Position numbers and translations under genes: made by a program. A DNA stretch of 62,492 nt, from the IMG/VR virus record IMGVR_UViG_3300047477_000250, positions 1-62,492 of that record. One strand, written 5' to 3'. Position 1 is the first letter of the stretch. Each line of letters begins with the position of its first letter. The notes below the pieces were generated by a model. The model was not told where the DNA came from, made no database searches, and saw only the letters and a program-made list of their open reading frames with translations. Of this stretch, positions 1 to 51,831 are shown piece after piece. This stretch comes from a virus. Lineage: Duplodnaviria; Caudoviricetes.

Positions 1-44
1 ACTTTAGATGATGTTACTAACATTATTAGTAAACTTTTTAATAC

Positions 45-119
45 GGAACATTAACTCAGCGGTAGAGTAGCGTCTTGATAAGGCGTTGGTCGGTGGTTCA
101 AATCCACCATGTTCCACCA
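45..119 (+). tRNA. tRNA-Ile(GAT)
   Basis: Acceptor GGAACAT/ATGTTCC+ACCA; anticodon loop TTGATAA; T-loop TTCAAAT. Confidence 0.95.
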
Positions 120-123
120 TTTT

Positions 124-165
124 GGCTTATTAGCTTAGTCTGGCTCAAAGCGCTACCCTGTCACG
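124..165 (+). pseudogene. 5' half of an interrupted tRNA-Asp(GTC)
   Basis: GGCTTAT acceptor strand, D arm and CTACC-CTGTCAC-G anticodon arm, then an abrupt switch to AT-rich sequence; pairs with 742-769. Confidence 0.85.
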
Positions 166-231
166 TTATTTAATGTTGAAAATTTTCTTTAGTCTTATTG
201 CTATTTGTCAATAATAATTTAAGGAAAATTA

Positions 232-762
232 ATGCAAACTAAAATATGTACAGACTGTAAATTAAATTTAGATATTTCTAATTTTTATATTCATAATAAA
301 AAGAAAAAAGATGGTACAATTTTATCTACTTATCAAAATCTTTGTAAAAAATGTTCTTCTAATAGAAGAAAAAAATATTATGTTAATAATATAGATACCG
401 AAAAAGCTTTGAAAAAAGAACGAGTTGAAAATATTAAAGAATGGTTTATTAATTTAAAGAAAACATATAAATGTTCTAAATGTGAAGATCCCCGTTGGTA
501 TGTTTTAGATTTCCATCATATAGATAATAATAAAGAACATAACCTAGGAGATCTTTCTTGTGGTAAATATAGTAAGAAAAAGATTTTAGAAGAATTTTCT
601 AAATGTATTCCTTTATGTTCAAATTGTCATAGAGAATTACACTATTTAGAAAAAAATGCAGCTGTAGCTCAATCGGGAGAGCGCAACACTGTCACTGTTG
701 AGGTAGTGGGATCGAAACCCATCAGCTGCGCCATAATTTCAGACGGTTCGAATCCGTCATAA
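232..762 (+). CDS. HNH endonuclease (tRNA-associated); ORF reads through tRNA-Asp
   Basis: CxxC pairs, DFHH...K and CIPLCSNCHRELH HNH motif. Confidence 0.85.
   Translation: MQTKICTDCKLNLDISNFYIHNKKKKDGTILSTYQNLCKKCSSNRRKKYYVNNIDTEKALKKERVENIKEWFINLKKTYKCSKCEDPRWYVLDFHHIDNNKEHNLGDLSCGKYSKKKILEEFSKCIPLCSNCHRELHYLEKNAAVAQSGERNTVTVEVVGSKPISCAIISDGSNPS
658..733 (+). tRNA. tRNA-Asp(GTC), intact replacement copy
   Basis: GCAGCTG/CAGCTGC+GCCA; CAACA-CTGTCAC-TGTTG anticodon arm. Confidence 0.93.
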
Positions 763-769
763 GTCGCCA
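742..769 (+). pseudogene. 3' half (T arm + acceptor + CCA) of the interrupted tRNA-Asp
   Basis: GACGG-TTCGAAT-CCGTC-ATAAGTC-GCCA; ATAAGTC pairs with GGCTTAT at 124. Confidence 0.85.
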
Positions 770-875
770 ATTTAAAAGGAAAGTATCATGGCAATGATAG
801 GTGGTCTAGCAGACCCTGATTATGAGACAGTTCTTCCTGAAAAAACTCCAAAAGAAATTGATAAACGTGTATGAT

Positions 876-970
876 GGGCGAAGCCTTACACTTAATATAG
901 AGAAATATGGAATTAAAATATCTATAGATGCATATAAAGACCCTTAGAGTGTTTGGCGTAATTGCACACT
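876..970 (+). ncRNA. Structured repeat A, copy 1 (candidate 5'-UTR element)
   Basis: 95 nt; homologous to 3956-4050 with a covarying internal stem. Confidence 0.6.
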
Positions 971-997
971 GTTTATTAATTTAATACGGTAATAAAA

Positions 998-1459
998 ATG
1001 AAAACAGAAATTAAATTTCCTGGTCTTTATACTCCTAAATTAGATAATTATAATGATAATGGTTACTATGATGGTTGTGTTGATTATCAAGTAAATGATC
1101 GTAAAGGTAAATTATTATTTTGGTTATTATTTGAAGAAGAAGATTATTTTACTATACCATTAAGAGATGAAGTTTATAAATCATGTACTCCATTTATTTA
1201 TATAGAAAGAACTTCCACTAATCATTTCTTTTTTGAAAATGATAAAGATGTTGAAGACATGTTAAAATATCCTCATACTATTAGTACTATTGGTTGTGAT
1301 GATGGACATAAAGGTTGGAGATTTGAAACTAAAGAGCAATTAGAAGCTTGGGTTATGAATTTCATACAAGATGCTCTTAATATTAATAAAAAGAACTCTT
1401 TTGAATATCCTTCTGAATTTTTAGATTATTATGAAGAAAACCAAGTTTGGAGAAACTAA
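998..1459 (+). CDS. hypothetical protein
   Basis: ORF track. Confidence 0.7.
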   Translation: MKTEIKFPGLYTPKLDNYNDNGYYDGCVDYQVNDRKGKLLFWLLFEEEDYFTIPLRDEVYKSCTPFIYIERTSTNHFFFENDKDVEDMLKYPHTISTIGCDDGHKGWRFETKEQLEAWVMNFIQDALNINKKNSFEYPSEFLDYYEENQVWRN

Positions 1460-1869
1460 TGTCTGATATTCCATTATATTTAGTTCGAATTGGTATTAAA
1501 GATATCCCTAGTGAAGATCATTTAGGATATCCAGCATCAGGACTCATTGGTGAAGAAACTAATGTCTTTGATGTGAATAATGAAATGATTCATGTTGGAG
1601 ATATAGTTAAAGTAACTAAAGAAAATGGTTGGTGGACAGGTTTAATTATATACCATGATAGTTATAAATATGGTGAATACTATACTATAACTGGAATGGC
1701 TTCTTCTCCTTTAAAAGAATTAAGTAAGACGCATAAAATTGAAAGAGTCGTACCTTATACTCATTTAAATCAAGAGTATAGAAGACATATTCACTATATT
1801 GCATTATCAGAAAAATATTTAGATACATCTTACAATTTTGTGAATGGTGTATGGACTAAAATAAAATAA
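1447..1869 (+). CDS. hypothetical protein
   Basis: ORF track; likely start ATG 1459 overlapping the upstream stop. Confidence 0.65.
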   Translation: MEKLMSDIPLYLVRIGIKDIPSEDHLGYPASGLIGEETNVFDVNNEMIHVGDIVKVTKENGWWTGLIIYHDSYKYGEYYTITGMASSPLKELSKTHKIERVVPYTHLNQEYRRHIHYIALSEKYLDTSYNFVNGVWTKIK

Positions 1870-1880
1870 TAGGTAAACTA

Positions 1881-2048
1881 ATGAAACAATGGTTAAAAGA
1901 TTTTACACATAATTGTATTGTTCATCCAATGATGATGTTTATACCTAAAAAATGGGCTAACCAGCTCCATGATCGACATGCTGGTTGGTGTTGGGGAAAA
2001 GAAAATCATGTTGACGAATTAACTTTAGAAGGTTTTCGTGAAAAATGA
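1881..2048 (+). CDS. small hypothetical protein (55 aa, MKQWLKDFTHNCIVHP...)
   Basis: Read manually; AGGT RBS; below the ORF-track cutoff. Confidence 0.6.
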   Translation: MKQWLKDFTHNCIVHPMMMFIPKKWANQLHDRHAGWCWGKENHVDELTLEGFREK

Positions 2049-2212
2049 ATTTAAACATTTTTTAATACTATTAAAGGTACAGTACTAAATGTACTAAGTA
2101 CTTATAAAGAAAAAATTAATCGATTAGATCAAAAACCTAAAACATTAATTAATGTTTTAATGGAACGTTTTGAAAATCAGACAAAAACTAATTTAGAAAG
2201 CTGTAGGCATAC

Positions 2213-2654
2213 AGGTGTTCTTAAGTTACAGTTGGGCTACTTACCTAACAACGTGCTTGTATGAGCATGATTTGCAATCCTTTCTATCTCTCCTCATACT
2301 TCCCATGTGTAAACACATGTTCTAGTCAGGAGAAACCCCTCCGTGCATTTGTCTAACGGAGGCTAAAAATGGTGACGTTAGTCCACGATCCACGTAGCAC
2401 CTGATCCTTGGTCACTCCGTAAAGGAGGAGTAAAGGGTAGTATGGCAGTGGCATACATTCCCTATGGGACATGGAGAATTGTTCAATTACCTGAGACCAT
2501 GTAAAATCCGCAGGAAGTTGAGAAATTTAATCTATTAGTTGCTTATGTAAATATGATTCTAGAAAACATTACATATTCGAACATCTATCTGTTAAAAGAA
2601 GTGGTGCAGTTGGTATCTCGGGTACACGAGTCTCAAAGTACATACGGAGCACCT
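2213..2654 (+). ncRNA. Large GC-enriched structured ncRNA candidate
   Basis: No ORF; closing stem AGGTGTTC/GAGCACCT; many internal hairpins. Confidence 0.55.
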
Positions 2655-2694
2655 TAATGTTGAATTCTAAAGATAGATTAAAACAAATTTAATT

Positions 2695-2939
2695 AACACA
2701 CATAACCGTAAGAAGTTCCATCCAAATATCTACTTGTATCTTTAGATTGTATTTGAGATGTTCTGTGACGGATTTATTAGTAGAAATAAAGAGAAGTGGA
2801 TAGTAACCTACGATTGCTTATCAACAGCTTAGGCTTCGATTTGCCGTATACGGTATACAAAACAGATGACCCCTTAGTTTAAGAATTCGTTCTTATTCTG
2901 TATGAGCTAAATCAGTCTTACGCCTTCTTTATGTGTGTT
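2695..2939 (+). ncRNA. Structured repeat B, copy 1 (~250 nt)
   Basis: Homologous to 4469-4735 with compensatory changes. Confidence 0.7.
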
Positions 2940-2940
2940 T

Positions 2941-3116
2941 AGTTATCTTAGACCTGGGTTGTCCTATCCAGGTGTAGTACCCATTGTTAATCATTTGAAT
3001 CAGAATATAGACGTATGTTTAAAGTTTGAATGGTCGCTAGAAAATCCATGGTCCTAGTGTATAAAATAAGGTGGAATTGTAGGTTCGAATCCTCGCAATT
3101 CAGGTCTAAGATAATT
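2941..3116 (+). ncRNA. RNA with a T-loop-like hairpin inside a long closing stem
   Basis: AGTTATCTTAGACCTG/CAGGTCTAAGATAATT stem; AGG-TTCGAAT-CCT. Confidence 0.5.
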
Positions 3117-3142
3117 AGGAAGTTGGCCTCAAAGTAGCTGAT

Positions 3143-3676
3143 TTATTCGTCAGCGTGTTCTTTTCGATGACAATTCGCACATAAAACTATACACTTATCT
3201 AACTCAGATTTAATACTATTAAAAGTCTTAGTAGTCTTAGATATTGAAAAATCTTTTTGTAAAGGATCTGTATGATGAAAATCATAAATTTGTGGGTAAT
3301 CTTTATCTACTAATTTACATCTATTACATATCCATCCTAAATACTCTAAAGCTTGAATTTTTATATTTCTTCGTCTTTGTGAAGATTGAATTGACCTACA
3401 AGGTTTACAAACGGAATCATAATATTCCCATACTCTTTCATTTTCCTTTTGGACTTGTTTATAAAATTCAGTTGTAGATTTTTCTAGTTTACAATCTAAA
3501 CAGATTTTTTCTTTTTTATCTATTGCTCTATCTACTACTTTTTCTGCTTTCTTTATTTTCAAGTTATGTGTTTTTGCAAATAAATAAATTGTAGATTTTG
3601 ATTTATTAGTTTTTTCTACTAAATCAGAAATTGTTAAATCTTGTTTGATTAGTTCAATTATTTGTTGGGTATTCAT
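3143..3676 (-). CDS. HNH endonuclease, paralog of 232-762
   Basis: DFHH, CIVLCANCHRKEH. Confidence 0.85.
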   Translation of the reverse strand: MNTQQIIELIKQDLTISDLVEKTNKSKSTIYLFAKTHNLKIKKAEKVVDRAIDKKEKICLDCKLEKSTTEFYKQVQKENERVWEYYDSVCKPCRSIQSSQRRRNIKIQALEYLGWICNRCKLVDKDYPQIYDFHHTDPLQKDFSISKTTKTFNSIKSELDKCIVLCANCHRKEHADE

Positions 3677-3751
3677 TGTAATTACTCATATTTTAATTTA
3701 TTATATATGTTGTTCAACTCTTTATAATTTTGTTTTTAAAGAGCTAAACGT

Positions 3752-3780
3752 ATTATAATTATTATGTAAAGTTTTGTCAA
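3752..3780 (-). promoter_or_regulatory. Consensus sigma70 promoter for the HNH gene
   Basis: TTGACA-17 nt-TATAAT on the minus strand. Confidence 0.85.
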
Positions 3781-3955
3781 TCTTTTAAAGAGTCACAAGA
3801 ACGATCCGTAGTGCAGCATACCCAGTCCCAGGGAGAGCTGACGTAAAAGTTCAGGGGAAGAATTAGTACAGTTTTATATATAATGTAGAAGGTAATATGG
3901 GCGGTATATGTTGTGATGACTATATCTCTAGAAGTTATGCTGGAACTATGTTTAA

Positions 3956-4050
3956 GGGCGAAGCCTTAGACTTAATCTGATGAAAGTAAGGGATAGGATA
4001 ATCAGAGATGTATATAAAGACCCTCAGAGTGTTTGGTTTAACAACACACT
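3956..4050 (+). ncRNA. Structured repeat A, copy 2
   Basis: See 876-970. Confidence 0.6.
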
Positions 4051-4081
4051 ATTTATCAATTAATATTCAAGGTAATTTAAT

Positions 4082-4333
4082 ATGGAAGAAAGAATCTTAG
4101 AAACATTAAAAATTTCTATGTATAAACTAGCATATTATAATTACAATGCTACCTATGGTCGGTATCAGTATGAGCAGGAGATTCTTGCTTATAAGTACCA
4201 TATAGGAACTCTCGTAGATTTGTGTATCTTAGAAGGAATTAGTATAGCTAATCTTTCTGAGTCGTATGATGGTTATACTGTCGATGAAGAGGATTTAATC
4301 TCTTTTGTCGAACTAGTTAAATATTTTAATTAA
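4082..4333 (+). CDS. hypothetical protein (only ORF found with an apparently triplet-read in-frame CGG, at 4160)
   Basis: ORF track. Confidence 0.55.
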   Translation: MEERILETLKISMYKLAYYNYNATYGRYQYEQEILAYKYHIGTLVDLCILEGISIANLSESYDGYTVDEEDLISFVELVKYFN

Positions 4334-4468
4334 TCCCCCTTAAATAGTTGGGAAGGAGTTTGCAATTAAAAGATAGGTTGACTTCCTATCTCTGTACAGC
4401 TTAGACAAACAGAAGTTATCTTTAAATGCCCCGAGGAAAGAAGCGGAATAGGCGTCTGTTTTAGTGTT

Positions 4469-4735
4469 TTACATAACCACAAGAAGCTCCATCCAAGTAT
4501 CTACATTAGCTTGCATTTGACCACTGATTATCATGCCGATGCGATAAGCACATTATTTGAGATGTTCTATGGTGGCTCTATTGGTAGTGATAGAGAGAAG
4601 TGGAGATTAATAAATATTGAGTTGGACTGATTTTTGTTTACCCAATCTATTTATTATGAAGTGATGACCCCTTAGAGATATGTATTCGTACATACTCCGT
4701 ATGAGCTAAATTGTCCTTACGCCTTCTTTATGTAA
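4469..4735 (+). ncRNA. Structured repeat B, copy 2
   Basis: See 2695-2939. Confidence 0.7.
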
Positions 4736-5105
4736 CCATTCATAAAATAAATGAATTAAAAAGAGAATTTTAATGTTTGAATATGATAAATTGTCAAAAG
4801 AAAAATAGGCGATTGTTCTTCAAGTTATGTTTAGTAATTACTTTCCTTTTACCACGCTCCAATTTTAATTAATATTTAGAAATAATTTATATCCACAACA
4901 AGTAATCGACGGACGCACTTAATTACGTAAGTATGACAGTACCGTATCAAATGTATGTTGATACCAGCAAAAGAGACAGAAAGTTATTATAAATTATTTC
5001 ATAAATATTAATTATTAAGTTTTAATCACGACAAATGTTTAATGTTTAAAAGTTCTCAAATAAAATTAATCTTTTAAAATTATAGAAACTGTATAGGTAT
5101 TTAAT

Positions 5106-5348
5106 ATGAATATTACTAATGGTGAAGTTGAAGAGATTAGAACATGGTCTCATTTTAATAATAAAGTTATTAAATTTCAAAATACAGTTAACTCTGAAAT
5201 ATTTAAACAATTATTTAATGATGATTGGAAACGATTACGTATTCATTTTATTGAAGATTGTAATCGTGACCTTAATAAATTTAGAACATATTTAACTAAC
5301 AATCAAAATAATGATGTATTAACATATATAGTAAGAATTAGTTTATGA
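5106..5348 (+). CDS. hypothetical protein
   Basis: ORF track with RBS. Confidence 0.6.
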   Translation: MNITNGEVEEIRTWSHFNNKVIKFQNTVNSEIFKQLFNDDWKRLRIHFIEDCNRDLNKFRTYLTNNQNNDVLTYIVRISL

Positions 5349-5573
5349 TGTATGTTATATTAATTAACTTATTTGCATACGAGGAATTGCGTAGCATTGG
5401 AGAAACCGTTGATAACTGAGTAATAAAAGCTTTGGATAAAGTTATTACGAGGTTTGATAGAATGTAGGTATCGAGGCCTACTGTGAATAAGTTAATTAAT
5501 ATAATGATGTGTTAATATATATATATATATATGTAGTTAGAATTAAGTCATAGTATAATTAGGAGTCACATTA

Positions 5574-5981
5574 GTGAGTAGTGATGTATTATTAAATGAA
5601 GCTAAAGCTATTATACATACTTATGGTTTAGCTACTAGTGCTAGTGTATTTGCTCAAAAAGTAATAAACTACATAGAAGAGTCAGAAGGAATTAAAATTA
5701 ATTCAAGTGTATTAGAGTATTTAAATGATTACTTTCCTGCTCCTTTTTATTTAAAAACAAATAAATATGAAGTAGGTACTGTTTTGTATACTGCTAAACC
5801 TTATATTCGTACTAATGCAACTATTGTAAATATTAAAGGTAATACTTTTATTATATTAACAGATATTGGTAATCTAATAGAAGTAGATGTTAAAACTTTA
5901 GAATCAAATTATTTACCACCTGTTTGTAAAAGAGCAAGGAGTGTACCTGATTTAGAGGAAGAGTATTTTACCTTATTATAA
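5574..5981 (+). CDS. hypothetical protein
   Basis: ORF track, AGGAG RBS. Confidence 0.65.
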   Translation: MSSDVLLNEAKAIIHTYGLATSASVFAQKVINYIEESEGIKINSSVLEYLNDYFPAPFYLKTNKYEVGTVLYTAKPYIRTNATIVNIKGNTFIILTDIGNLIEVDVKTLESNYLPPVCKRARSVPDLEEEYFTLL

Positions 5982-6024: not shown

Positions 6025-6726
6025 ATGAGTTATATTCAAAATAAAATCCAATATAGTAGGTTACATAAAAATGAAAGGCAAGTATTAGAATACTTATTTT
6101 GTACGCTTGGTAATGGAATTGATTTAAATTTAAAAGGTCATATTGAAAGTTATTACGATGCTGAATTTATTATTACAGAACCAGTATTACCTTTATCTTA
6201 TATTTATCCAATTCATACATTTAGTAGTCGTGGTTCACGTTTAGCTGGATGTTCTAATAAAGGATTTAAAGAAGCAGTTCAATATTTAATTGATTGTATT
6301 ATGGTTACTCCTGATACTGTTTCTAATGTTAAAGATTGGAAAGATAATATTCATATTCTTGAAAAATTAAGAGATCATCCGCCTATAAAAGATCAATATA
6401 GTGATAAAGAATTAGGTGAAGAGAATTTTCTTAAAGAATTAATGAAATCGACTTCGACTACTGCAAGTCATTGTAATCTTCAAGGTATTCCAGATAATTC
6501 TGTTCGAAAAATTCAATATTTTGATGTTCAATGGTCTGACACTCCTGAATTTGTTTTAGAAGAAGTTAAACAATTATGGTTAGATTATACGTTAGGTAAT
6601 GATAAATATATCTATAAAACTAATTTAGATGATGAATTATTTGCAAGTTATCCTCGTATTTATTTTTGGCTTAAACATAAAAATGTTAAAGAAAACGAAG
6701 AAGTAATTGTTCATTGGTGGTGGTAG
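6025..6726 (+). CDS. hypothetical protein
   Basis: ORF track. Confidence 0.7.
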   Translation: MSYIQNKIQYSRLHKNERQVLEYLFCTLGNGIDLNLKGHIESYYDAEFIITEPVLPLSYIYPIHTFSSRGSRLAGCSNKGFKEAVQYLIDCIMVTPDTVSNVKDWKDNIHILEKLRDHPPIKDQYSDKELGEENFLKELMKSTSTTASHCNLQGIPDNSVRKIQYFDVQWSDTPEFVLEEVKQLWLDYTLGNDKYIYKTNLDDELFASYPRIYFWLKHKNVKENEEVIVHWWW

Positions 6727-8723: not shown

Positions 8724-8803
8724 AGGCATGTGGTGAAGTGGCTCAACACACTGGGTTTTGATCCCAGCATATATCGTTAGTTCGAATCTAACCATGCCTT
8801 CCA
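8724..8803 (+). tRNA. tRNA-Gln(TTG)
   Basis: AGGCATG/CATGCCT+TCCA; CTGGG-TTTTGAT-CCCAG. Confidence 0.9.
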
Positions 8804-14568: not shown

Positions 14569-15458
14569 ATGATCAATAAATCTATTATAATTAAGAAGTT
14601 TAAATCTTTTGATGAAAGGTTAAAAGATTTCTCTGATAGATATAGTGTACCTCTTTATACTAATAGTATATCTTTTAATTTTAAAACTAATTTATATTAT
14701 ATTCGGTAACTTTAATATATTTAGTAGACCTTTACATTACTGTACTGAAGCTACTAAAGGTGCAAAGATAAAAATTCAAATGGGTTGTTATATTCATGGA
14801 TTATTTCTTTCATCTCCTGGTAATTATTTAAGTAGTTACTCAGGTTGTCCCGAATGTTCAAAATCTTTAATAAAGAAACCTAGAATAAAATCAAAAGAAA
14901 TAATAAAATTATTTAATGTTATACATAATAATTATTACACTTATATAGATTTACCTACTTACTCTGATAAACCTATTAATATAGTTTGCCCTACTCATGG
15001 TTCTTTCTCTATGACACCTCACCATCATAAACAAGGTAGAGGTTGTAAAGAATGTAAGAAGAATAAGAAACAAGAAAATGGAGGTTGGCGGTTACTCTGA
15101 TTGGACTAATGCTGCAATAAATTCTAAAAGTTTTGAATCATTTAAAGTCTATATAATTAGATGTTATAATGATAACGAAGAATTTATAAAGATTGGCAGA
15201 ACGTTTAGTAAATTAAATAAAAGATTTGAAGGTACATCTAAGTTACCTTATTCTTATGAAATAATTTACATTAAAGAATTTAGTAACCAACAAACTATAA
15301 CTAATAACAGTATTGAATGTTGTGAATTTGAAAAGAATTTACATAAAAAATTAAAAAGTTTTAAATATAATCCCTTATTGAAATTTAATGGATACACAGA
15401 ATGTTTCAATAAGGACTCCTTAGAATTAATCAAAGAAGATCAATTATGTCTTTTTTAA
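14569..15458 (+). CDS. Zn-finger-repeat/GIY-YIG-like homing endonuclease, recoded at CGGT 14704 and 15089 (295 aa)
   Basis: CxxHG/CPxC repeats plus KVYII...FIKIGRT...ECF; three frames join exactly at CGGN. Confidence 0.8.
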
Positions 15459-18400
15459 GTCAATTATCAACTTTTGGATTAGAAGCTTTCTCTACTGATT
15501 CCACAAAGAAATATCGTAATGCATTATTCGCTAATGGCCTATGGCAAATACGTGATGAACCAGTTGGTGAGTTTACATTAAAAGTACAAGATTTTGATGG
15601 TAAGAAATATGGATTAACTAAAGATTGTCAATTTAGTTATACACCAAAATTACCTAAGATCCCTCACACTATCTTTAATAATATTTTACAGTATTATAAA
15701 GATATTTATGCAACGCTTAAATCAGAAGTATATACTAGCATTTGCTGGGATATTGCAAAGCAAGATTATTTTATTTATGTACCAAAACAAGTAGTTTCTG
15801 GTGCAGCTGTAACGTTTGAAAATAACGCAGCGATTATGAATGATCCTAATATTGTAATTGTATGCGATGTGCATTAATTTGAGTGCCTTTATGTAGTAAT
15901 ACATATCGAATAATTGGGTGAACCTGTGTAGGAAACAGGGTGTGAGAGGAAACTCTTGCTAACGGTGAAACTTCAGAAGAAGAACAATACCGTGCTAAGT
16001 CTATCGAATAAGAAATCAATTAAATCAATTGATAGTAGATAGGAAAGTGTAACGACTAATGGGTGAAGATCTTTACTAATAATCCCGACACGAGTGCCCA
16101 ACACCCTCAATTAAGAGGGTGATGAGATAGTCTTATCTTGACATTTTTCTTCAATGAAAGAAATGAATCTTTCATATTTACGATTTAAGTGTATTTCAGA
16201 ATTATCATACATAGAAAACATAAGTAATATATTATCTTTAGCACCGTATAGACAGTCCAGAAATATTAGCTGAGTGATTAAAATAATAAGAAGTAATTCC
16301 GAAAACTTTTATATAATCCTTTAGAAAATCCTCTGTTCCTCTTATACTTATATAATAATGACCTTTTGGTTTAGAAGCGGGAACTGTTTTGAATATAGAT
16401 CCATCTCCATCAAAGTATCCTCTTAAGAAGGCTTTTCTGAATTCTTTAGGTATATTGTGTATTATAGATGGCATAGTTAATGATTTATTGGATTCTATTC
16501 CTAAATCATTTAAAGCTTTAATATGTTCTTTTCTACTTATAACGAAACGAACATGATCCTTTTTAGTTAATTGTTTAACTTCATGATCGCAACCAATATC
16601 TTCTTTTAAAGAATCAAGTATGATTCTATCTTTAGAGTGTATTGTTATTGTTAAAGATGTACTTGTTTTAGTTTTTACTAAAGCACCATCAGCTGCAATA
16701 AAGCCAACAAAATAAGCTTTTTTATCTGTGTTAATATTTCTAAAATATTCTAAATTTCCAGGATTTAGGGTGAATTTACTATCAGGTCTGTACTTTTTAA
16801 TTAAGTTGGACACACTCTGATGATATTCATTCAACTCTTCAGCTAATGATTTTATAGATCTACCTTTATCAATTTCGGATAAAATGTAATCTTTATGTTT
16901 TTCAAGTTTTAATTTCATGTATTACTCCTTACTTTTCTAGTGATGAATTAAGCCACTAGATTGTGAGTAATATTACATTTAAATTATTTGAATGTCAAGT
17001 AGATTAGTAATTAAAAAACTAATTGTAAAAAATGTCACATAATGTAATGAGTGCGTTGACCTAAGCGCACTAGATATAGTAATATATCTAAAGAAAACAA
17101 GGTGAACCTGTTTAGAAGACAGGGTGTTGTAAGAGTACTAATATATTAATGTCAAGAAAAATAACATTTAATAATACAGTGTTTCAAGAACGAGCTAATC
17201 TAATACATAAACGGCAGATATTTATACTTACATGAGTGTAATGGTTATAATACGAAAGTAACTATAACTTGTAAAATTCATGGAGAATTTATTCAATCCG
17301 TTAAACATCATTTATCTGGTAGCGGTTGTCGTAAATGTGATAACCAAAACAGAACACTAACTAATGAAGAATTCTTAAAAAGATCAAACAAAGTACACAA
17401 TAATTTATATACTTATTTAACTGAGTATATTGACTATTATACACCTATTGAAATAGTTTGTTCTTTACATGGAAAATTCTTTCAAAAACCTGCCAATCAT
17501 ATGAGAGGTTCAGGTTGTTATGAATGTGTTTCTAGTAAGATTAGTAAAGGTAACTTGAAAGATAATGAAAAATTCTTAGAAGAAATTCCTATTAGTCATA
17601 AGGATAAATATACTTATCCTGAAAAATATATAGGTGCACATACTCGCATAAATATAAACTGTAAAATACATGGTTTATTTTTATGTTCTCCTAATAATCA
17701 CGTAAGGGGAAAAGGTTGTCCTAAATGTTCTAAGTTAAGTCCTAATCGTAATGGTTGGTCTTATTCTAAATGGGATAGTGTAAGTAAAAATTCTAAGCAA
17801 TTTAATAGTTATCAGGTGTATGTTATTAAATGTTCTAATAAAGAAACAGATGAAAATTTTATAAAAATAGGTAGGACATTTACAACTATAGAAACTCGTT
17901 TTAGTGGTTCTAAAGTAATGCCTTATGATTATGAAATTTTAAATGTTACTAAATTTAATGATGCTCTTTCTTGTTGTTTAAAAGAAGAAGAGTTACATTC
18001 TAAATTTAAAAAGTATAAATATAAACCTTTAATTAAATTTAGAGGTGTATGTGAATGCTATGACTTAAATATATTAAATGAATTACAGCTAACGGTGGAA
18101 GTTTGATAGACGACATCCGTGCTAAGCATATCTTATGTAAAGACAAAGAGATATGAAAGTGTAGAGACTAGGTATTGAGTAACATAACAATATATACCCA
18201 CGAGCGCCTTGCTCCTTTAGAAATAAAGGATGATGAGATAGTCCGATCATTTACAGATCAACTAATTTTTAGTGTAGTAAATGAAGCATTGAAATTAAAA
18301 AGAATGCGATAACAAAATATGTTTGGTCAGCTGCTGATAAAGCAGATCAAAAAAGCAGTAGATTATTTGGTGTCATTGGTAAAATTTTAGATCCAACACC

Positions 18401-40452: not shown

Positions 40453-41468
40453 ATGCCTAAAGCTAAGACATACGAAGAAAATATAATAGATTTTTATAAG
40501 ATTCATTCTGAAGAAGATCTTATTTTTCCTTATGCTACTACTTCAGCTCGTGAAACATTCATAGCTGTTTGTACGTATCATCGGAGAGTTTAGTACTACT
40601 CCTGACAGATTAAAAGCTAATAAAGGTTGCCCTACTTGTGGTAAATTAAAAAGAAAATCTAAATTAACTAGTACTCATGAAAAGACTATAAAAGATATTG
40701 AAGAAATATTTCCAAATAAGTTTGAGTACATAGAAGAATTTAGTAATTATGATACTTATGTTAATGTTTATTGTAAAATAGATAATCATGGTATATTCTG
40801 CACTTGTCCTAGGAATCTTAAAAAGAAAATAGATTGTCCTAAATGTAGAGATTTAAAACCTAGTAAACGTACATTATCATTTGAAGATAATATACTAGCT
40901 TTTAAAGTAGTACATAAAGATAAGTACGCTTACCCTGAAAATACAATAAATATTAGTAAGAAGATTAGAATTATATGTAAGCTTCATCGGTGATTTCTTT
41001 ATGACACCGCATAATCATAAACAAGGTCAAGGTTGCCCTAAGTGTGGTAATTCTAAAAAGAATAATAATTGGAATTACTCTAGTTGGGAAAAATCTGCTT
41101 TATCTTCTAAATCTTTTGATTCATTTAAAATATATTTTATTGAATGTTATGATGATTCAGAAAGATTTATTAAAGTAGGTAAAACTTATACTACTCTTGA
41201 AAGAAGATTTAATAAGAATAACTTACCTTATGATTATAAAATAATAAAAGAAATAATATTTAAAAATAGTAAACAGTGTTCTGAATACGAACACATGCTT
41301 CACAAGAAGCTCAAGCAGCTTAAATATAATCCTCTAAAGAAATTTAATGGTTATAATGAGTGCTTTCAGATGTTAATTCATTTAACATCACTTAACTACA
41401 ATTTAGTAGTTATCCCCTTTTTACCTGACACAGGATACAAATATGATCCCACGCACTCACAAAAATAA
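40453..41468 (+). CDS. Zn-finger/GIY-YIG-like homing endonuclease, recoded at 40582 (CGGA) and 40988 (CGGT) (337 aa)
   Basis: Both sites fall at CxxH[G] motifs. Confidence 0.8.
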
Positions 41469-41998: not shown

Positions 41999-42957
41999 AT
42001 GAAGAAATACCTAACTCATGAAATGCAAGTATTAAAGATAGAAGAAGTGCATCCTCGGTAAATTTGAATTTCCTAATTGTTTTTTAAATAATCATGAGAA
42101 AGTTAATGTATGGTGTAAGAGTTGCAAAGCTTTCTTTTTAATCTCACCTGAAAAATTAAAATCAGGTAGACGGTTGTCGTATATGTGGTATTAAAAGAAG
42201 AAGTAAACTTAAAGCTTATACTCATGATCAACATTTAGAAATATTAAATACGATTCATTCTAAAGAAGATATATTATTTAAAAATCCTCTTAAACGTTCT
42301 AAAGATAAATATCAAGCTTGGTGTGTTCATCATAATAAGTTTTTTAATACGACTATAGATCGTTTGAAGAGAGGTCAAGGATGTCCTCTATGTGGCATTG
42401 TAAGGTCCACAGAGGCCCAAACAATGTCTTATGATATGAATGTAGCTATGTTTAATAAAGTTCATTCTGAGGGCTTCTATAGCTATCCTAATAGTACTAA
42501 AACTAATTATATTCATTTTGATGTATATTGTAATCGTTGTGAATCTTTATTTTCTATTACCCCAGCTAATCACAAGCAAGGTCATGGTTGTCCTAGATGT
42601 GCTTATCGCGATTTACCTGGAGGTTGGACTAATAAAGATTGGGAATTAATGGCTTTAAATTCTAATCATTTTGATTCTTTTAAAGTATATATTGTTAATT
42701 GTTTTAATGAGAATAAATCTGAATCTTTTATTAAAATTGGTAAGACGTTTAGAAGTACTAAAATAAGATTTAAAACAATTCCATACGAATATGAAATAGT
42801 TAAAGAATTTATTTTTAATCAAGCTGAAGATGCTACTGAATTTGAAAGTAAATTAAAAGAAAGATTAAGTGAGTTTAGGTACGAACCTAAAATAAAATTT
42901 AACGGAAGAAATGAATGCTTCTCTAACGAAGCTTTAGAGAAAATTTTAAATGAATAA
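41999..42957 (+). CDS. Zn-finger/GIY-YIG-like homing endonuclease, recoded at CGGT 42056 and 42171 (318 aa)
   Basis: HP[G]KFEF and GR[G]CRIC restored. Confidence 0.8.
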
Positions 42958-46899: not shown

Positions 46900-47967
46900 T
46901 GTCAAAACAAAATGGCTTATCTGCACAAGATAGAAAGAAAGCTTTTGAAGTTCTAAAAGCCAACGTAAAGAAGAAATGGCGGAAATGAAGTAATCATTGA
47001 TTCTGAGAACGTTCCAGATTACGATGTAATTCCATTTGGAAGCTATAAAATAGATTCAGCATCTAATGTAGGCGGACTTGTTAGAGGTCGTTTATCAGTA
47101 ATTATAGGTGAATCTGGGAGCTGTAAAAGTACTACTGCTATCTTACTAATGGCTAGTGCTCAGAAGACTTATCCTGATCAAATGGTTGCATTTATTGATA
47201 TCGAATTTGCATTTGATATAGAGTATGCACAAAAATTAGGTTTAGATACCTCTGAAGAAAGATTCTTATTAGTTCAACCTGATTCTGCTAATCAAGCATT
47301 AGATCTCCTATTAAAATTTACTGAATCTTCGTTATTTAGTTTAGTAGTACTAGATTCTATTCCTGCTTTAGTTCCAGAACAGAATTTAAATTCTGATGTA
47401 GGTGATATGCAAGTTGCATCACTTGCTCGTTTATTAAGTAATGAATTAAGAAGAGTAATGATTGAAGCTAATAAAACTAGTACCTCTGTATTATTGATTA
47501 ATCAATGGAGAGCAGGTATTGGTTTCACTACTGGTGATAAAGTAATGCCAGGTGGTTCAGCAATAAAATATTACCCATCAACTATTATTGAGTTAAAACG
47601 TAAAGAATTACTTCGTAAAGGTGATAATATTATAGGCCTTGAGATACAAGCTAATTTTACAAAAAATAGATTTGGTTCTCCTTATAGAAAGGCCCATTAC
47701 AAACTTTACTTTGGTGAAGGTATTCGAAAATCTGACGAAGCTGTAGAAGTTGCTAAAGACTTGGGAATTATCTCAGGTAAAGGTTGGTATATATATCCTA
47801 TCAGTCCAACTGAAACTGGTAAACTACAAGGACTTGAAAGTGTCATTAATTGGTACAAAGATAATCCTGAAGCTTTTGCTTATTTAGAATCTTTAGTTGT
47901 TGATTCGTTTAAGAAATCAAAAACTACTGTAGTAGAATCTGAAGATGAAGAGATTGAAGAGATTTGA
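46899..47967 (+). CDS. recA: RecA recombinase, recoded at CGGA 46980 (355 aa)
   Basis: KKW[G]NE, Walker A GESGSCKST, FIDIE, LDS+.AL.P, INQ.R, PGG.A.K. Confidence 0.92.
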
Positions 47968-49367: not shown

Positions 49368-50277
49368 TGAATTCTGAGCAACTAGAAGAGACTTTAGTTA
49401 TTTTAAAAGAAATGAATTTAGAGTATGTATCTGATAAAGGTCCTTGTAAAATAATTGTTAAAAATAAATATGGCTATTGTTCTGTTCATTTAAATAGTTT
49501 AAGAAAACGAAGTTACCTTACTATACAATCTTCTATAGATAAAAACTCTTATTTTATTAATCGTGCTAAAGAAGTTCATGGTGACAAGTACGACTATTCA
49601 TTAGTTAATTATATATCACATAATACTAAAATATGTATTATTTGTCCTACACATCGGTAAAATTTATCCAATACCTATATGTCATCTTAGAGGTGATAAT
49701 TGTTATAAGTGTACAGGCAGAGGTCTTTCAGATGAAGAGAAAATTGAAAAATTTAGATTAGTGCATGGAGATAAATATCAATATATTTTACCATTACCTA
49801 GAAGATCTAAAGATTTGATGAAAATAATCTGTAAGGATCATCGGAGAATTTAGTCAAAGTCTTGATGCTCATTTAGTTGGTAAAGGCTGTATTAAATGTG
49901 GACATATCTTAACTTCTATTAATAATAAAAGAACAGGTTGGAAACATTCCGACTGGCAAAAATCTGCTGAAAATTCGAAATATTTTGATTCATTTAAAGT
50001 GTACATTATTGAATGTTTTAATGAAAATGAAAAGTTTATTAAAATAGGCAAGACTTACAGAACCTTATATCAAAGATTTCGTAGTAATTTTCTACCTTAC
50101 AAGTATAACAGTATTAAAATTTTTAATTTTGAAGATGCTAAAAGTTGCTCTAAATTTGAAACGAATTTACATAACGAATTTAAAGAATTCAAATATAATC
50201 CATTAATTAAATTTGGTGGAGATATGGAATGTTTTTCTATAGAAGTTTTAGATCAATTAAAAGAACACTTAATATAA
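49367..50277 (+). CDS. Zn-finger/GIY-YIG-like homing endonuclease, recoded at 49655 (CGGT) and 49842 (CGGA) (302 aa)
   Basis: CPTH[G] and CKDH[G] restored. Confidence 0.8.
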
Positions 50278-50613: not shown

Positions 50614-51831
50614 ATGTTATATCAAACATTAGAACAATATTGGCGGGTATGACTCCTTTAAAGGTAAACAAGAAACTTGTATAAATCATATTTTAGAGCG
50701 GTAAAGATTCTTTTTTTTTAGCTCCAACTTCTTTAGGAAAAAGTGTAGTTTTTCAATTATCAGCTACGCTGATGGAAGGAACTACGATCATAATAAGCCC
50801 TTTATTAAGTTTACAAGCGGACCAAACTAGTGATTTAACTAGACGACGGTATTAAAGCTGCTTGTCTTAATGGTAGTACTGGTAAGAAAGAAACTAAAAT
50901 AATTGTAGAAGCTTTGAAAGATAAGTCTTTAAAGTTATTATATATTGCTCCTGAAACATTACTTCGTACTAATGATTATGATGAATTATGGTTTTTAGAT
51001 TTTTTAAAAACTGAATGCTCTATTAATCATATTGCGTTAGATGAATGTCATGCAGTTGTTCAATCTTCTCAAGACTTTAGGCCTAAGTATAGACAACTAG
51101 GAATATTAAAAGAATACTTTGAAGATATTCCTTTTACATGTTTAACTGCTACAGCTACTAAAGATAATATTCAAGAGATTACTTCTTTATTAGGTATGAC
51201 TGATTACACTGTATTTGATCATCATTTATATCGACCTAATTTACATCAAAATGTTATTAGAAAGATAGATGAAATGTATCAATTAATGAGTTTATTAAGA
51301 CAGTATACTAAGACTACTACTGGTTTAATATATTGTAATACTAGAGAGAAGTGTAAAGAGATTTCTGATTATTTAAATAAAAATGGTTATAATACTGCTT
51401 ACTTTTATTCTACTATTGGTAAAAAAGAAAAGAAAAGAATTCTTGATGGTTTTATTGATGGAAGTATTTCCAAAATTATTTGTACAAGTGCCTTTGGTAC
51501 TGGGATTAATAAAGATAATGTAAGATTTGTTATTAATTTAGATGTGCCTGCTTCTTTAAATGATTATGTTCAACAGGCAGGTAGAAGTGGTAGGGATGGA
51601 TTGGTTTCTAATATCTATACTTTCTACCACCCTTCTGATATTACTAAATTAAAATATATACTTAGAATGAGTACAACTTCTCCTATTAGGCTTAGAAAGT
51701 CCTATGAAGTTTTAGATGAAGTAGTTAATTATTGTTTAAATACTAAACAGTGTAGAAATCAACTATTATTACAAGCTTATAATCAAACTTTAGAAAAAGA
51801 TTGTGGTACTTGTGATAATTGTAAAAATTGA
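50614..51831 (+). CDS. recQ: RecQ helicase, recoded at 50644, 50699 and 50847 (404 aa; alternative TTG start 50593)
   Basis: W[G]YDSF, LE[G]KD, PT..GKS, SPL.SL..DQ, R[G]IKA, DECH, TAT, QQAGRSGRDG, C-terminal Zn motif. Confidence 0.92.

Follow-up and report, generated by a model that had tools for sequence, protein, structure and literature searches.

The locus considered here raises the question of what two similar units in a phage genome fragment, designated copies A and B, represent. They lie on IMG/VR virus record IMGVR_UViG_3300047477_000250 (Duplodnaviria; Caudoviricetes), the whole of which was analysed as one stretch of 62,492 bases (the window); the record has a GC content of approximately 25% and was judged 27% complete. 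A preliminary description of this DNA had placed two copies of a non-coding RNA of about 250 nucleotides (nt) at 2695-2939 and 4469-4735, and both the coordinates and the likeness were borne out by self-blastn and by alignment with MAFFT. The interpretation preferred here, with moderate confidence, is that A and B constitute a lineage-restricted family of structured stable RNAs, situated in an island of transfer RNA (tRNA) and other stable RNA genes that is riddled with homing endonucleases. The two copies would be paralogous genes, each read from the + strand to yield a structured, trans-acting stable RNA of approximately 245-270 nt.

When positions 1-5600 were compared with the window by self-blastn, A 2750-2934 paired with B 4554-4733 at 70.7% over 188 nt (E 3.4e-13) and A 2700-2733 with B 4471-4504 at 88% over 34 nt (E 1.3e-5). 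A separate repeat search of the window recovered the likeness of A and B as the same three blocks. No third copy was detected in the 62-kb window by self-blastn, and R1, a covariance model built from A and B, matched these two positions only. The MAFFT alignment extends over 318 columns with a mean column identity of 78%, and in it diverged stems and two non-aligning segments, V1 and V2, are interspersed with invariant blocks of 9-18 nt. Every shared block listed in the preliminary description is present in this alignment, and V1 and V2 correspond to the two internal segments that it had called unrelated between the copies. The sequences flanking A and B could not be aligned with each other by MAFFT or self-blastn. 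Since the repeat is far above chance and its flanks are unrelated, the pattern points to selection on the unit and not to a recent segmental copy.

No open reading frame (ORF) of at least 40 amino acids (aa) was found inside A or B on either strand. An in-frame ORF of about 22 codons, beginning with ATG, occurs in both copies in the conserved GAGATGTTCT block. A coding reading of this small ORF was rejected, as approximately 8 of 10 codon differences alter the residue and the ATG is without a preceding ribosome-binding site.

The secondary structure was set by hand and comprises 43 pairs in seven helices. These include a helix, 135-140/268-273, that is mis-registered with two unpaired positions and lies outside the claim; the claimed helices are those that are local or closing and clearly defined, namely P1, P2, arm I, P3 and P5 (37 pairs, Table 1). 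Between A and B, six of the 37 pairs changed on both sides, two changed to G-U and none was broken, and when the 3' partners were displaced by 1-3 columns as a control, two-sided change was seen in only 0-1 pairs. RNAalifold applied to the two copies predicted 58 pairs, 10 of which were compensatory (both sides changed). Changes on both sides were seen in one of seven pairs of P1 (C-G to U-A), two of four in P2, one of six in P3 (TTTATT/AATAAA in A versus TCTATT/GATAGA in B, with a further U-A to U-G) and two of six in P5; arm I is invariant at 13 of its 14 pairs, the remaining A-U pair becoming G-U. The covariation that had been proposed for the stem ACACATAA/TTATGTGT versus TTACATAA/TTATGTAA was confirmed, as was that of CCGT/ACGG versus CCAC/GTGG and of AAGAA-TTCG-TTCTT versus ATGTA-TTCG-TACAT. 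A third version of P5, CAGAGA-TTCG-TCTCTG, was found in a related phage at the loose end of a contig from sequencing run X18, before 4699, and shows four further compensatory changes relative to A with the loop and flanks of A retained. The copy in this relative has CCCATTGG where CCCCTTAG is expected in block GATGACCCCTTAG. The + strand is favoured because it agrees with the UUCG loop and with both changes to G-U, and all eight tRNA genes called by ARAGORN in the window also lie on this strand. The matching base changes support a shared fold, the comparison being made between two full sequences and fragments from close relatives.

In the proposed architecture P1 would close the RNA, and from its junction would radiate P2 with arm I (carrying V1 at its tip), P3, an arm bearing V2 and P5 with its UUCG loop. 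Most of the invariant sequence falls between helices (GAGAAGUGGA, GAUGACCCCUUAG, GUAUGAGCUAAAU and CUUACGCCUUCUU) and may form the functional core, which is probably a binding or catalytic fold accompanied by two replaceable arms; we infer tertiary folding and the binding of a protein or of a second RNA. V1 and V2 would be exposed and replaceable, and may tune each paralog. Block GAGAAGTGGA has two candidate pairing partners, CTTCTT near the 3' end and CCCCTT of the next block, between which covariation cannot choose because both are invariant. For the 3' blocks, pairing of GTATGAG with CTTACGC and of GAGCT with AGYTC at 2714-2718 are candidates with which the data are compatible.

Table 1. 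Positions of copies A and B, their structural elements and other features of the window (window numbering, except for the Y RNA loci of other phages)
Feature	Positions	Strand	Remarks
Copy A	2695-2939	+	Closing stem to closing stem; model R1 294.5 bits
Copy B	4469-4735	+	Model R1 322.6 bits
P1 closing stem	A 2699-2705/2929-2935, extendable to 2695/2939; B 4470-4476/4728-4734	+	7 pairs
P2	A 2706-2709 CCGT/2768-2771 ACGG; B 4477-4480 CCAC/4572-4575 GTGG	+	4 pairs
Arm I, long irregular hairpin with V1 at its tip	A 2711-2764; B 4482-4568	+	14 pairs, three stacked helices
Arm I helices in A	2711-2714/2761-2764, 2719-2722/2757-2760, 2723-2728/2750-2755	+	
V1, variable tip of arm I	A 2729-2749 (21 nt); B 4500-4553 (54 nt)	+	No alignment between copies
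P3 hairpin	A 2773-2778/2785-2790; B 4577-4594	+	6 pairs; conserved GTAG (GUAG) in loop
Invariant block GAGAAGTGGA	A 2791-2800; B 4595-4604	+	From alignment
V2, variable segment	A 2801-2864 (64 nt); B 4605-4662 (58 nt)	+	No alignment between copies
Invariant block GATGACCCCTTAG	A 2865-2877; B 4663-4675	+	From alignment
P5 hairpin	A 2880-2885/2890-2895; B 4679-4694	+	6 pairs; UUCG loop
Invariant 3' block GTATGAGCTAAAT	A 2900-2912; B 4699-4711	+	From alignment
Invariant 3' block CTTACGCCTTCTTTATGT	A 2917-2934; B 4716-4733	+	From alignment
Y RNA	3115-3138 + 3780-4065	+	Conserved phage RNA
HNH endonuclease ORF in Y cassette	3143-3676	-	Perfect TTGACA-17-TATAAT promoter at 3780-3752
Y RNA loci of other phages	L006 3976-4296; L007 3976-4267; L019; L020; L021; L023		
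tRNAs beside which copies A and B lie	45-119, 658-733, 8724-8803	+	ARAGORN
Broken tRNA-Asp region	123-168, 232-762, 658-733, 741-773		Remnants, HNH endonuclease ORF, intact tRNA-Asp(GTC)
Homing-endonuclease-like ORFs; RecA ORF; RecQ-like ORF	15078-15458, 16238-16918(-), 33275-34087(-), 41001-41468, 42364-42957, 49999-50277; 47149-47967; 50914-51831		

The stretch 2000-5200 is present in freshwater and wastewater sequencing runs from 12 studies. Contigs from the RNA libraries X15, X16 and X18 (three studies) and from the DNA run X5 were aligned to it at 85% likeness; RNA runs X17, X19 and X20, whose shares were small, were not included. RNA-library contigs were obtained over A (X15 2683-2755, X16 2193-3116 and X18 2700-2989) and over B (X15 4480-4741), and give weak evidence that both copies are transcribed. 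Together with the compensatory changes and the lack of ORFs of 40 aa or more, they agree with the earlier claim of a multi-stem non-coding RNA with covariation. RNA-library contigs were absent on 2000-2106, 3177-3711 and 4782-5200, and DNA run X5 covered all 30 bins. These gaps are not evidence of silence, because the flanks differ in the relatives and the relatives are without the HNH cassette described below.

The contigs also show that the copies exchange parts in relatives. At the joint 4715>2917 a B-type 3' end stands upstream of 2917, and at the joint 2800>4654 an A-type 5' half is fused to a B-type 3' half. A further V2 insert in a relative is indicated by an X15 contig that follows B as far as 4609 and then continues in a different sequence. 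Another X15 RNA-library contig, of 215 nt and depth 5.5, runs over 4580-4741, passes through six letters and continues from 4463 onward (going back 279), thereby joining 4741 to 4463 as one full unit head to tail. Such a junction would be expected if the RNA either catalysed its own excision and ligation or were processed by RNA repair enzymes, the unit closing to a circle of about 285 nt, and a fold this complex for its size would suit such an activity. The six letters at the junction are, however, those of the X5 DNA flank upstream of B, which resembles the spacer following B in the window; for this reason the contig points to tandem copies in a relative, and tandem DNA copies explain it at least equally well. 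As the contig is moreover single and of low depth, in an assembly graph with branch points in the shared blocks, and no Rfam ribozyme was matched, a self-processing or circular RNA is considered highly unlikely.

Rfam 15 (4227 models) was scanned at the gathering threshold over the whole window, where six tRNA matches were the only result, and at E<=10 over 1800-5600, where none of five weak matches overlapped A or B. The RNA is therefore as unrecognised as the preliminary description had supposed, no family covariance model matching either copy even at the permissive threshold. Among the self-cleaving ribozyme classes represented in Rfam (hammerhead, twister, pistol, hatchet, hepatitis delta virus (HDV)-like and others) there was likewise no match over A or B. 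ARAGORN called no tRNA or transfer-messenger RNA (tmRNA) in A or B, and no tmRNA in the window.

The record is an uncultured low-GC giant phage, a distant relative of Acinetobacter phage ME3 (235 kb), the nearest isolate found. A 233-aa protein at 6025-6726 has 57% identity to an ME3 protein, and its order relative to a conserved RNA, Y, that neighbours A and B is also kept. Model R1 matched neither ME3 nor RSP15 (0/2 records), nor any of four further whole viral records (0/4). In six loci around Y RNA it gave one match of 7.6 bits (E 2.4), which lay in the variable-insert region and was dismissed, and in 11 loci retrieved by pattern matching it gave none (0/8, 0/2 and 0/1). The pattern queries for viral contigs consisted of pairs of invariant blocks or of the 5' block. 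Four of six such scans returned nothing and the others 10 and 2 matches, all unrelated: the 10 were judged by reading to be GC-rich unrelated sequence, and the 2 were the same unrelated stretch. One metagenome scan produced eight matches, all unrelated, and two scans of genome contigs gave none and a single Rhodococcus match without R1 support. A search for related loci by way of the neighbouring 233-aa protein yielded nothing. By blastn (word 11), 2000-5200 matched six of 50,697 phage records, in no case within A or B. A section of PMC10690425 gives 8,495 candidate structured RNAs from IMG/VR, and a pattern search of six supplementary files of that paper did not find two invariant blocks of A and B. 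A full-text literature search found no described counterpart. As far as searched, the family appears confined, within these collections, from which near relatives may be missing, to the phage of the record and its close kin.

Several of these results weigh against a family of structured stable RNAs. Shuffles reached the observed covariation in 11 of 500 cases, approximately the floor for two sequences, and the covariation statistics are weak because just two full sequences and some fragments are available, all from one phage lineage. For GAGAAGUGGA to CUUACGCCUUCUU, all candidate pairings are invariant, so that covariation does not settle their partners. Folding energy is unremarkable in both copies, with z = -1.69 for A (12 of 200 shuffles as good) and z = +0.20 for B (106 of 200). 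The RNA-library contigs give no strand, ends or level, DNA may contaminate such libraries and one of the contigs is 5.5 kb in length. Against conservation across phages stands the lack of a homolog in ME3, RSP15, the four viral records and the 11 loci. The 62 kb, about 27% of the genome, contain no evident partner protein.

From the swappable inserts the preliminary description had further suggested a ribozyme or a guide-like RNA, for which no test gave support. As a guide-like modular RNA, the scaffold would bind an effector, and V1 and V2 or the variable 3' flank would pair with a target that differs for each paralog. A scaffold with replaced inserts in A and B, and the further insert and recombinant copies in relatives, are what such a system would produce. 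Nevertheless, the longest complementary matches of V1 and V2 in the 62-kb window, at 10-13 nt, do not exceed the null (segments of 21 nt, mean 10.6; segments of 58-65 nt, mean approximately 12), and the inserts are long (21-64 nt) and self-folding in minimum free energy (MFE) models. No effector gene, whether for a nuclease, a recombinase or a reverse transcriptase, lies next to the copies or in the window; the copies adjoin an HNH endonuclease, an 83-aa ORF and further RNA modules, and searches with Pfam and PHROGs found no IS110, TnpB, IscB, Cas or reverse-transcriptase domain in 97 window ORFs. From the window, about 27% of the genome, a guide function is regarded as unlikely. Also unlikely is a still broader proposal, in which A and B would represent a new class of modular phage RNA with an invariant tertiary core, two exchangeable specificity arms and recombination-shuffled tandem arrays, possibly forming the circle of about 285 nt. 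If true, it would amount to a programmable or self-processing RNA system for which giant phages offer no known counterpart.

The surroundings of the copies bear on the preferred reading of A and B as stable RNA genes and on two alternatives to it. Copy A ends at 2939 and a structured module begins at 2940 without a spacer, the module in turn adjoining Y from 3115. This module (2940-3125, 186 nt), between A and Y, has a 23-bp closing stem and a T-loop-like GGTTCGAATCC. Its MFE is -53.1 kcal/mol (z = -3.9), with none of 200 shuffles folding as well, and neither ARAGORN nor Rfam called it as a tRNA. Y RNA measures approximately 220-320 nt and occurs in seven or more phages, which differ in GC content. 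Applied to six of these, RNAalifold showed 26 of 56 Y pairs kept through changes on both sides, and the ME3 and RSP15 loci gave no Rfam match to Y at E<=5. In ME3 and RSP15, Y is contiguous and lies beside tRNA genes; in the window it is interrupted by a 641-nt cassette (3139-3779) with an HNH endonuclease ORF. RNA-library contigs from X15 and X18 join 3138 to 3780 via a single C, giving exactly the ME3-type sequence. As the window has CA before 3780, not C, this joint represents cassette-free alleles and not spliced RNA.

Towards the 5' end Y has the short motif GAAGTT...CCATC in common with A and B, and towards the 3' end GACCC(C)TTAG, and the copies might on that account be diverged paralogs of it. 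A profile hidden Markov model (HMM) of six Y sequences (nhmmer --max, E<=100) nevertheless detected Y, its partial copy and the 5' stub of Y and neither A nor B; the reverse search, with an HMM of A and B, matched none of seven Y sequences, and the architectures differ. Descent from Y is judged most improbable.

The second alternative is a repeat at the level of DNA, without RNA function: a small element with inverted ends, either mobile or prone to recombination, which the intense homing-endonuclease traffic would have spread and homogenised. The ends do form inverted repeats of 8-11 bp, of the two HNH cassettes in the island one lies between the copies, and parts are exchanged between copies in relatives. 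Mobile copies, however, diverge randomly, whereas here four stems show compensatory changes, loops are conserved and whole internal segments have been replaced. The second HNH cassette moreover sits inside a different RNA gene, the cassette-free allele (joint 3138>3780) keeps the A-side arrangement, and a target-site duplication is not evident. A DNA-level repeat of this kind is considered distinctly unlikely.

If A and B are stable RNA genes, as preferred here, they may be cut out of longer tRNA-type precursors. Excision from a precursor is proposed because A abuts the next module without a spacer and neither copy is flanked by a promoter-like (sigma-70-like) or terminator-like site. Head-to-tail packing without such signals would resemble a polycistronic precursor of the tRNA type. 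The mature RNAs may serve a role in infection, with a decoy or a scaffold as the leading guess.

Other features of the island were noted. A perfect 22-nt palindrome at 2138-2159 lies in the AT-rich spacer that precedes the RNA island. A non-coding, GC-richer module at 2193-2454 (z = -2.2) has a sharp boundary at 2454, beyond which the sequence differs in relatives; it lies on the deepest X15 RNA-library contig among those aligned, and in X15 is joined straight to 2683, just before A. A partial second copy of the Y 3' domain occurs at 864-986, after the first HNH cassette, and resembles the ME3 Y (85% over 110 nt) more than that of the window (78% over 112 nt), a pattern that suggests exchange between phages. 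A tRNA-Asp-like gene is apparently broken in two by an HNH endonuclease ORF that is followed by an intact tRNA-Asp(GTC). When the remnants were joined, ARAGORN made a tRNA call in 52 of 308 joins, which varied with the cut point between Asp(GTC), Thr(TGT) and undetermined. The arrangement looks like a homing cassette carrying its own replacement tRNA. That homing endonucleases break and replace RNA genes here (tRNA-Asp and Y) suggests a route for the duplication of RNA genes and their exchange between phages.

Elsewhere in the window the genes include rIIA, DNA ligase, thymidylate synthase, DHFR, RecA-like and RecQ-like pieces and many homing-endonuclease ORFs. The homing-endonuclease-like ORFs comprise four of T5orf172 type, one LAGLIDADG and one weak GIY-YIG. 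The RecA ORF covers profile positions 74-261 only, and in the RecQ-like ORF just the final part of the DEAD domain is present; mobile insertions may have split these genes.

Few RNAs of at least 250 nt combine a multi-helix junction with long invariant joining strands, and the known ones are mostly ribozymes, riboswitches or the cores of ribonucleoproteins. The present case is limited by its narrow distribution and by the lack of a cultured host. One comparison is with Y, which lies in the same island on the same strand, is likewise without an ORF and supported by covariation, and has the two short motifs in common; Y, however, occurs in seven or more phages that vary in GC content, A and B only here, and there is no similarity at the profile level. 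Group I introns of T4-type phages share with A and B the size class, the multi-helix fold and the phage setting with homing endonucleases. They differ in that A and B do not match RF00028, that their 5' and 3' ends pair together, that they are flanked by unrelated non-coding sequence with no recognisable split gene and that no joint in contigs from four runs removes either copy.

An invariant folded scaffold with variable segments is also the design of bridge RNA (IS110) and of omega RNA (TnpB/IscB), which adjoin the gene for their own recombinase or nuclease and whose variable parts match the target. A and B are alike in scaffold and variable segments but have no adjacent effector and no target match in the window. 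Comparable in setting are T4 RNAC and RNAD, ORF-less stable RNAs encoded in the tRNA region of T4; A and B, as read here, would likewise be stable RNAs encoded next to tRNA genes in a T4-type phage. A passage of PMC9697503 refers to RNAC and RNAD as 'RNAs of yet unknown functions'. In comparison, A and B are about twice as long, are paralogous with replaced internal segments, and have no similarity by blastn to the 50,697 phage records, among which the inclusion of T4 was unchecked. GOLLD and ROOL are orphan RNAs of complex fold, some 600-800 nt in length, that are often found in phages or prophages adjoining tRNA genes. The location of A and B is of this kind, a virus record with same-strand tRNA genes beside them; they match neither Rfam model (RF01998 and RF03087) at E<=10, measure 245-267 nt and were found in one phage lineage within the searches made. 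As paralogs with replaceable arms beside the tRNA genes of a giant phage, A and B would enlarge the small set of orphan phage RNAs to which T4 RNAC and RNAD, GOLLD and ROOL belong.

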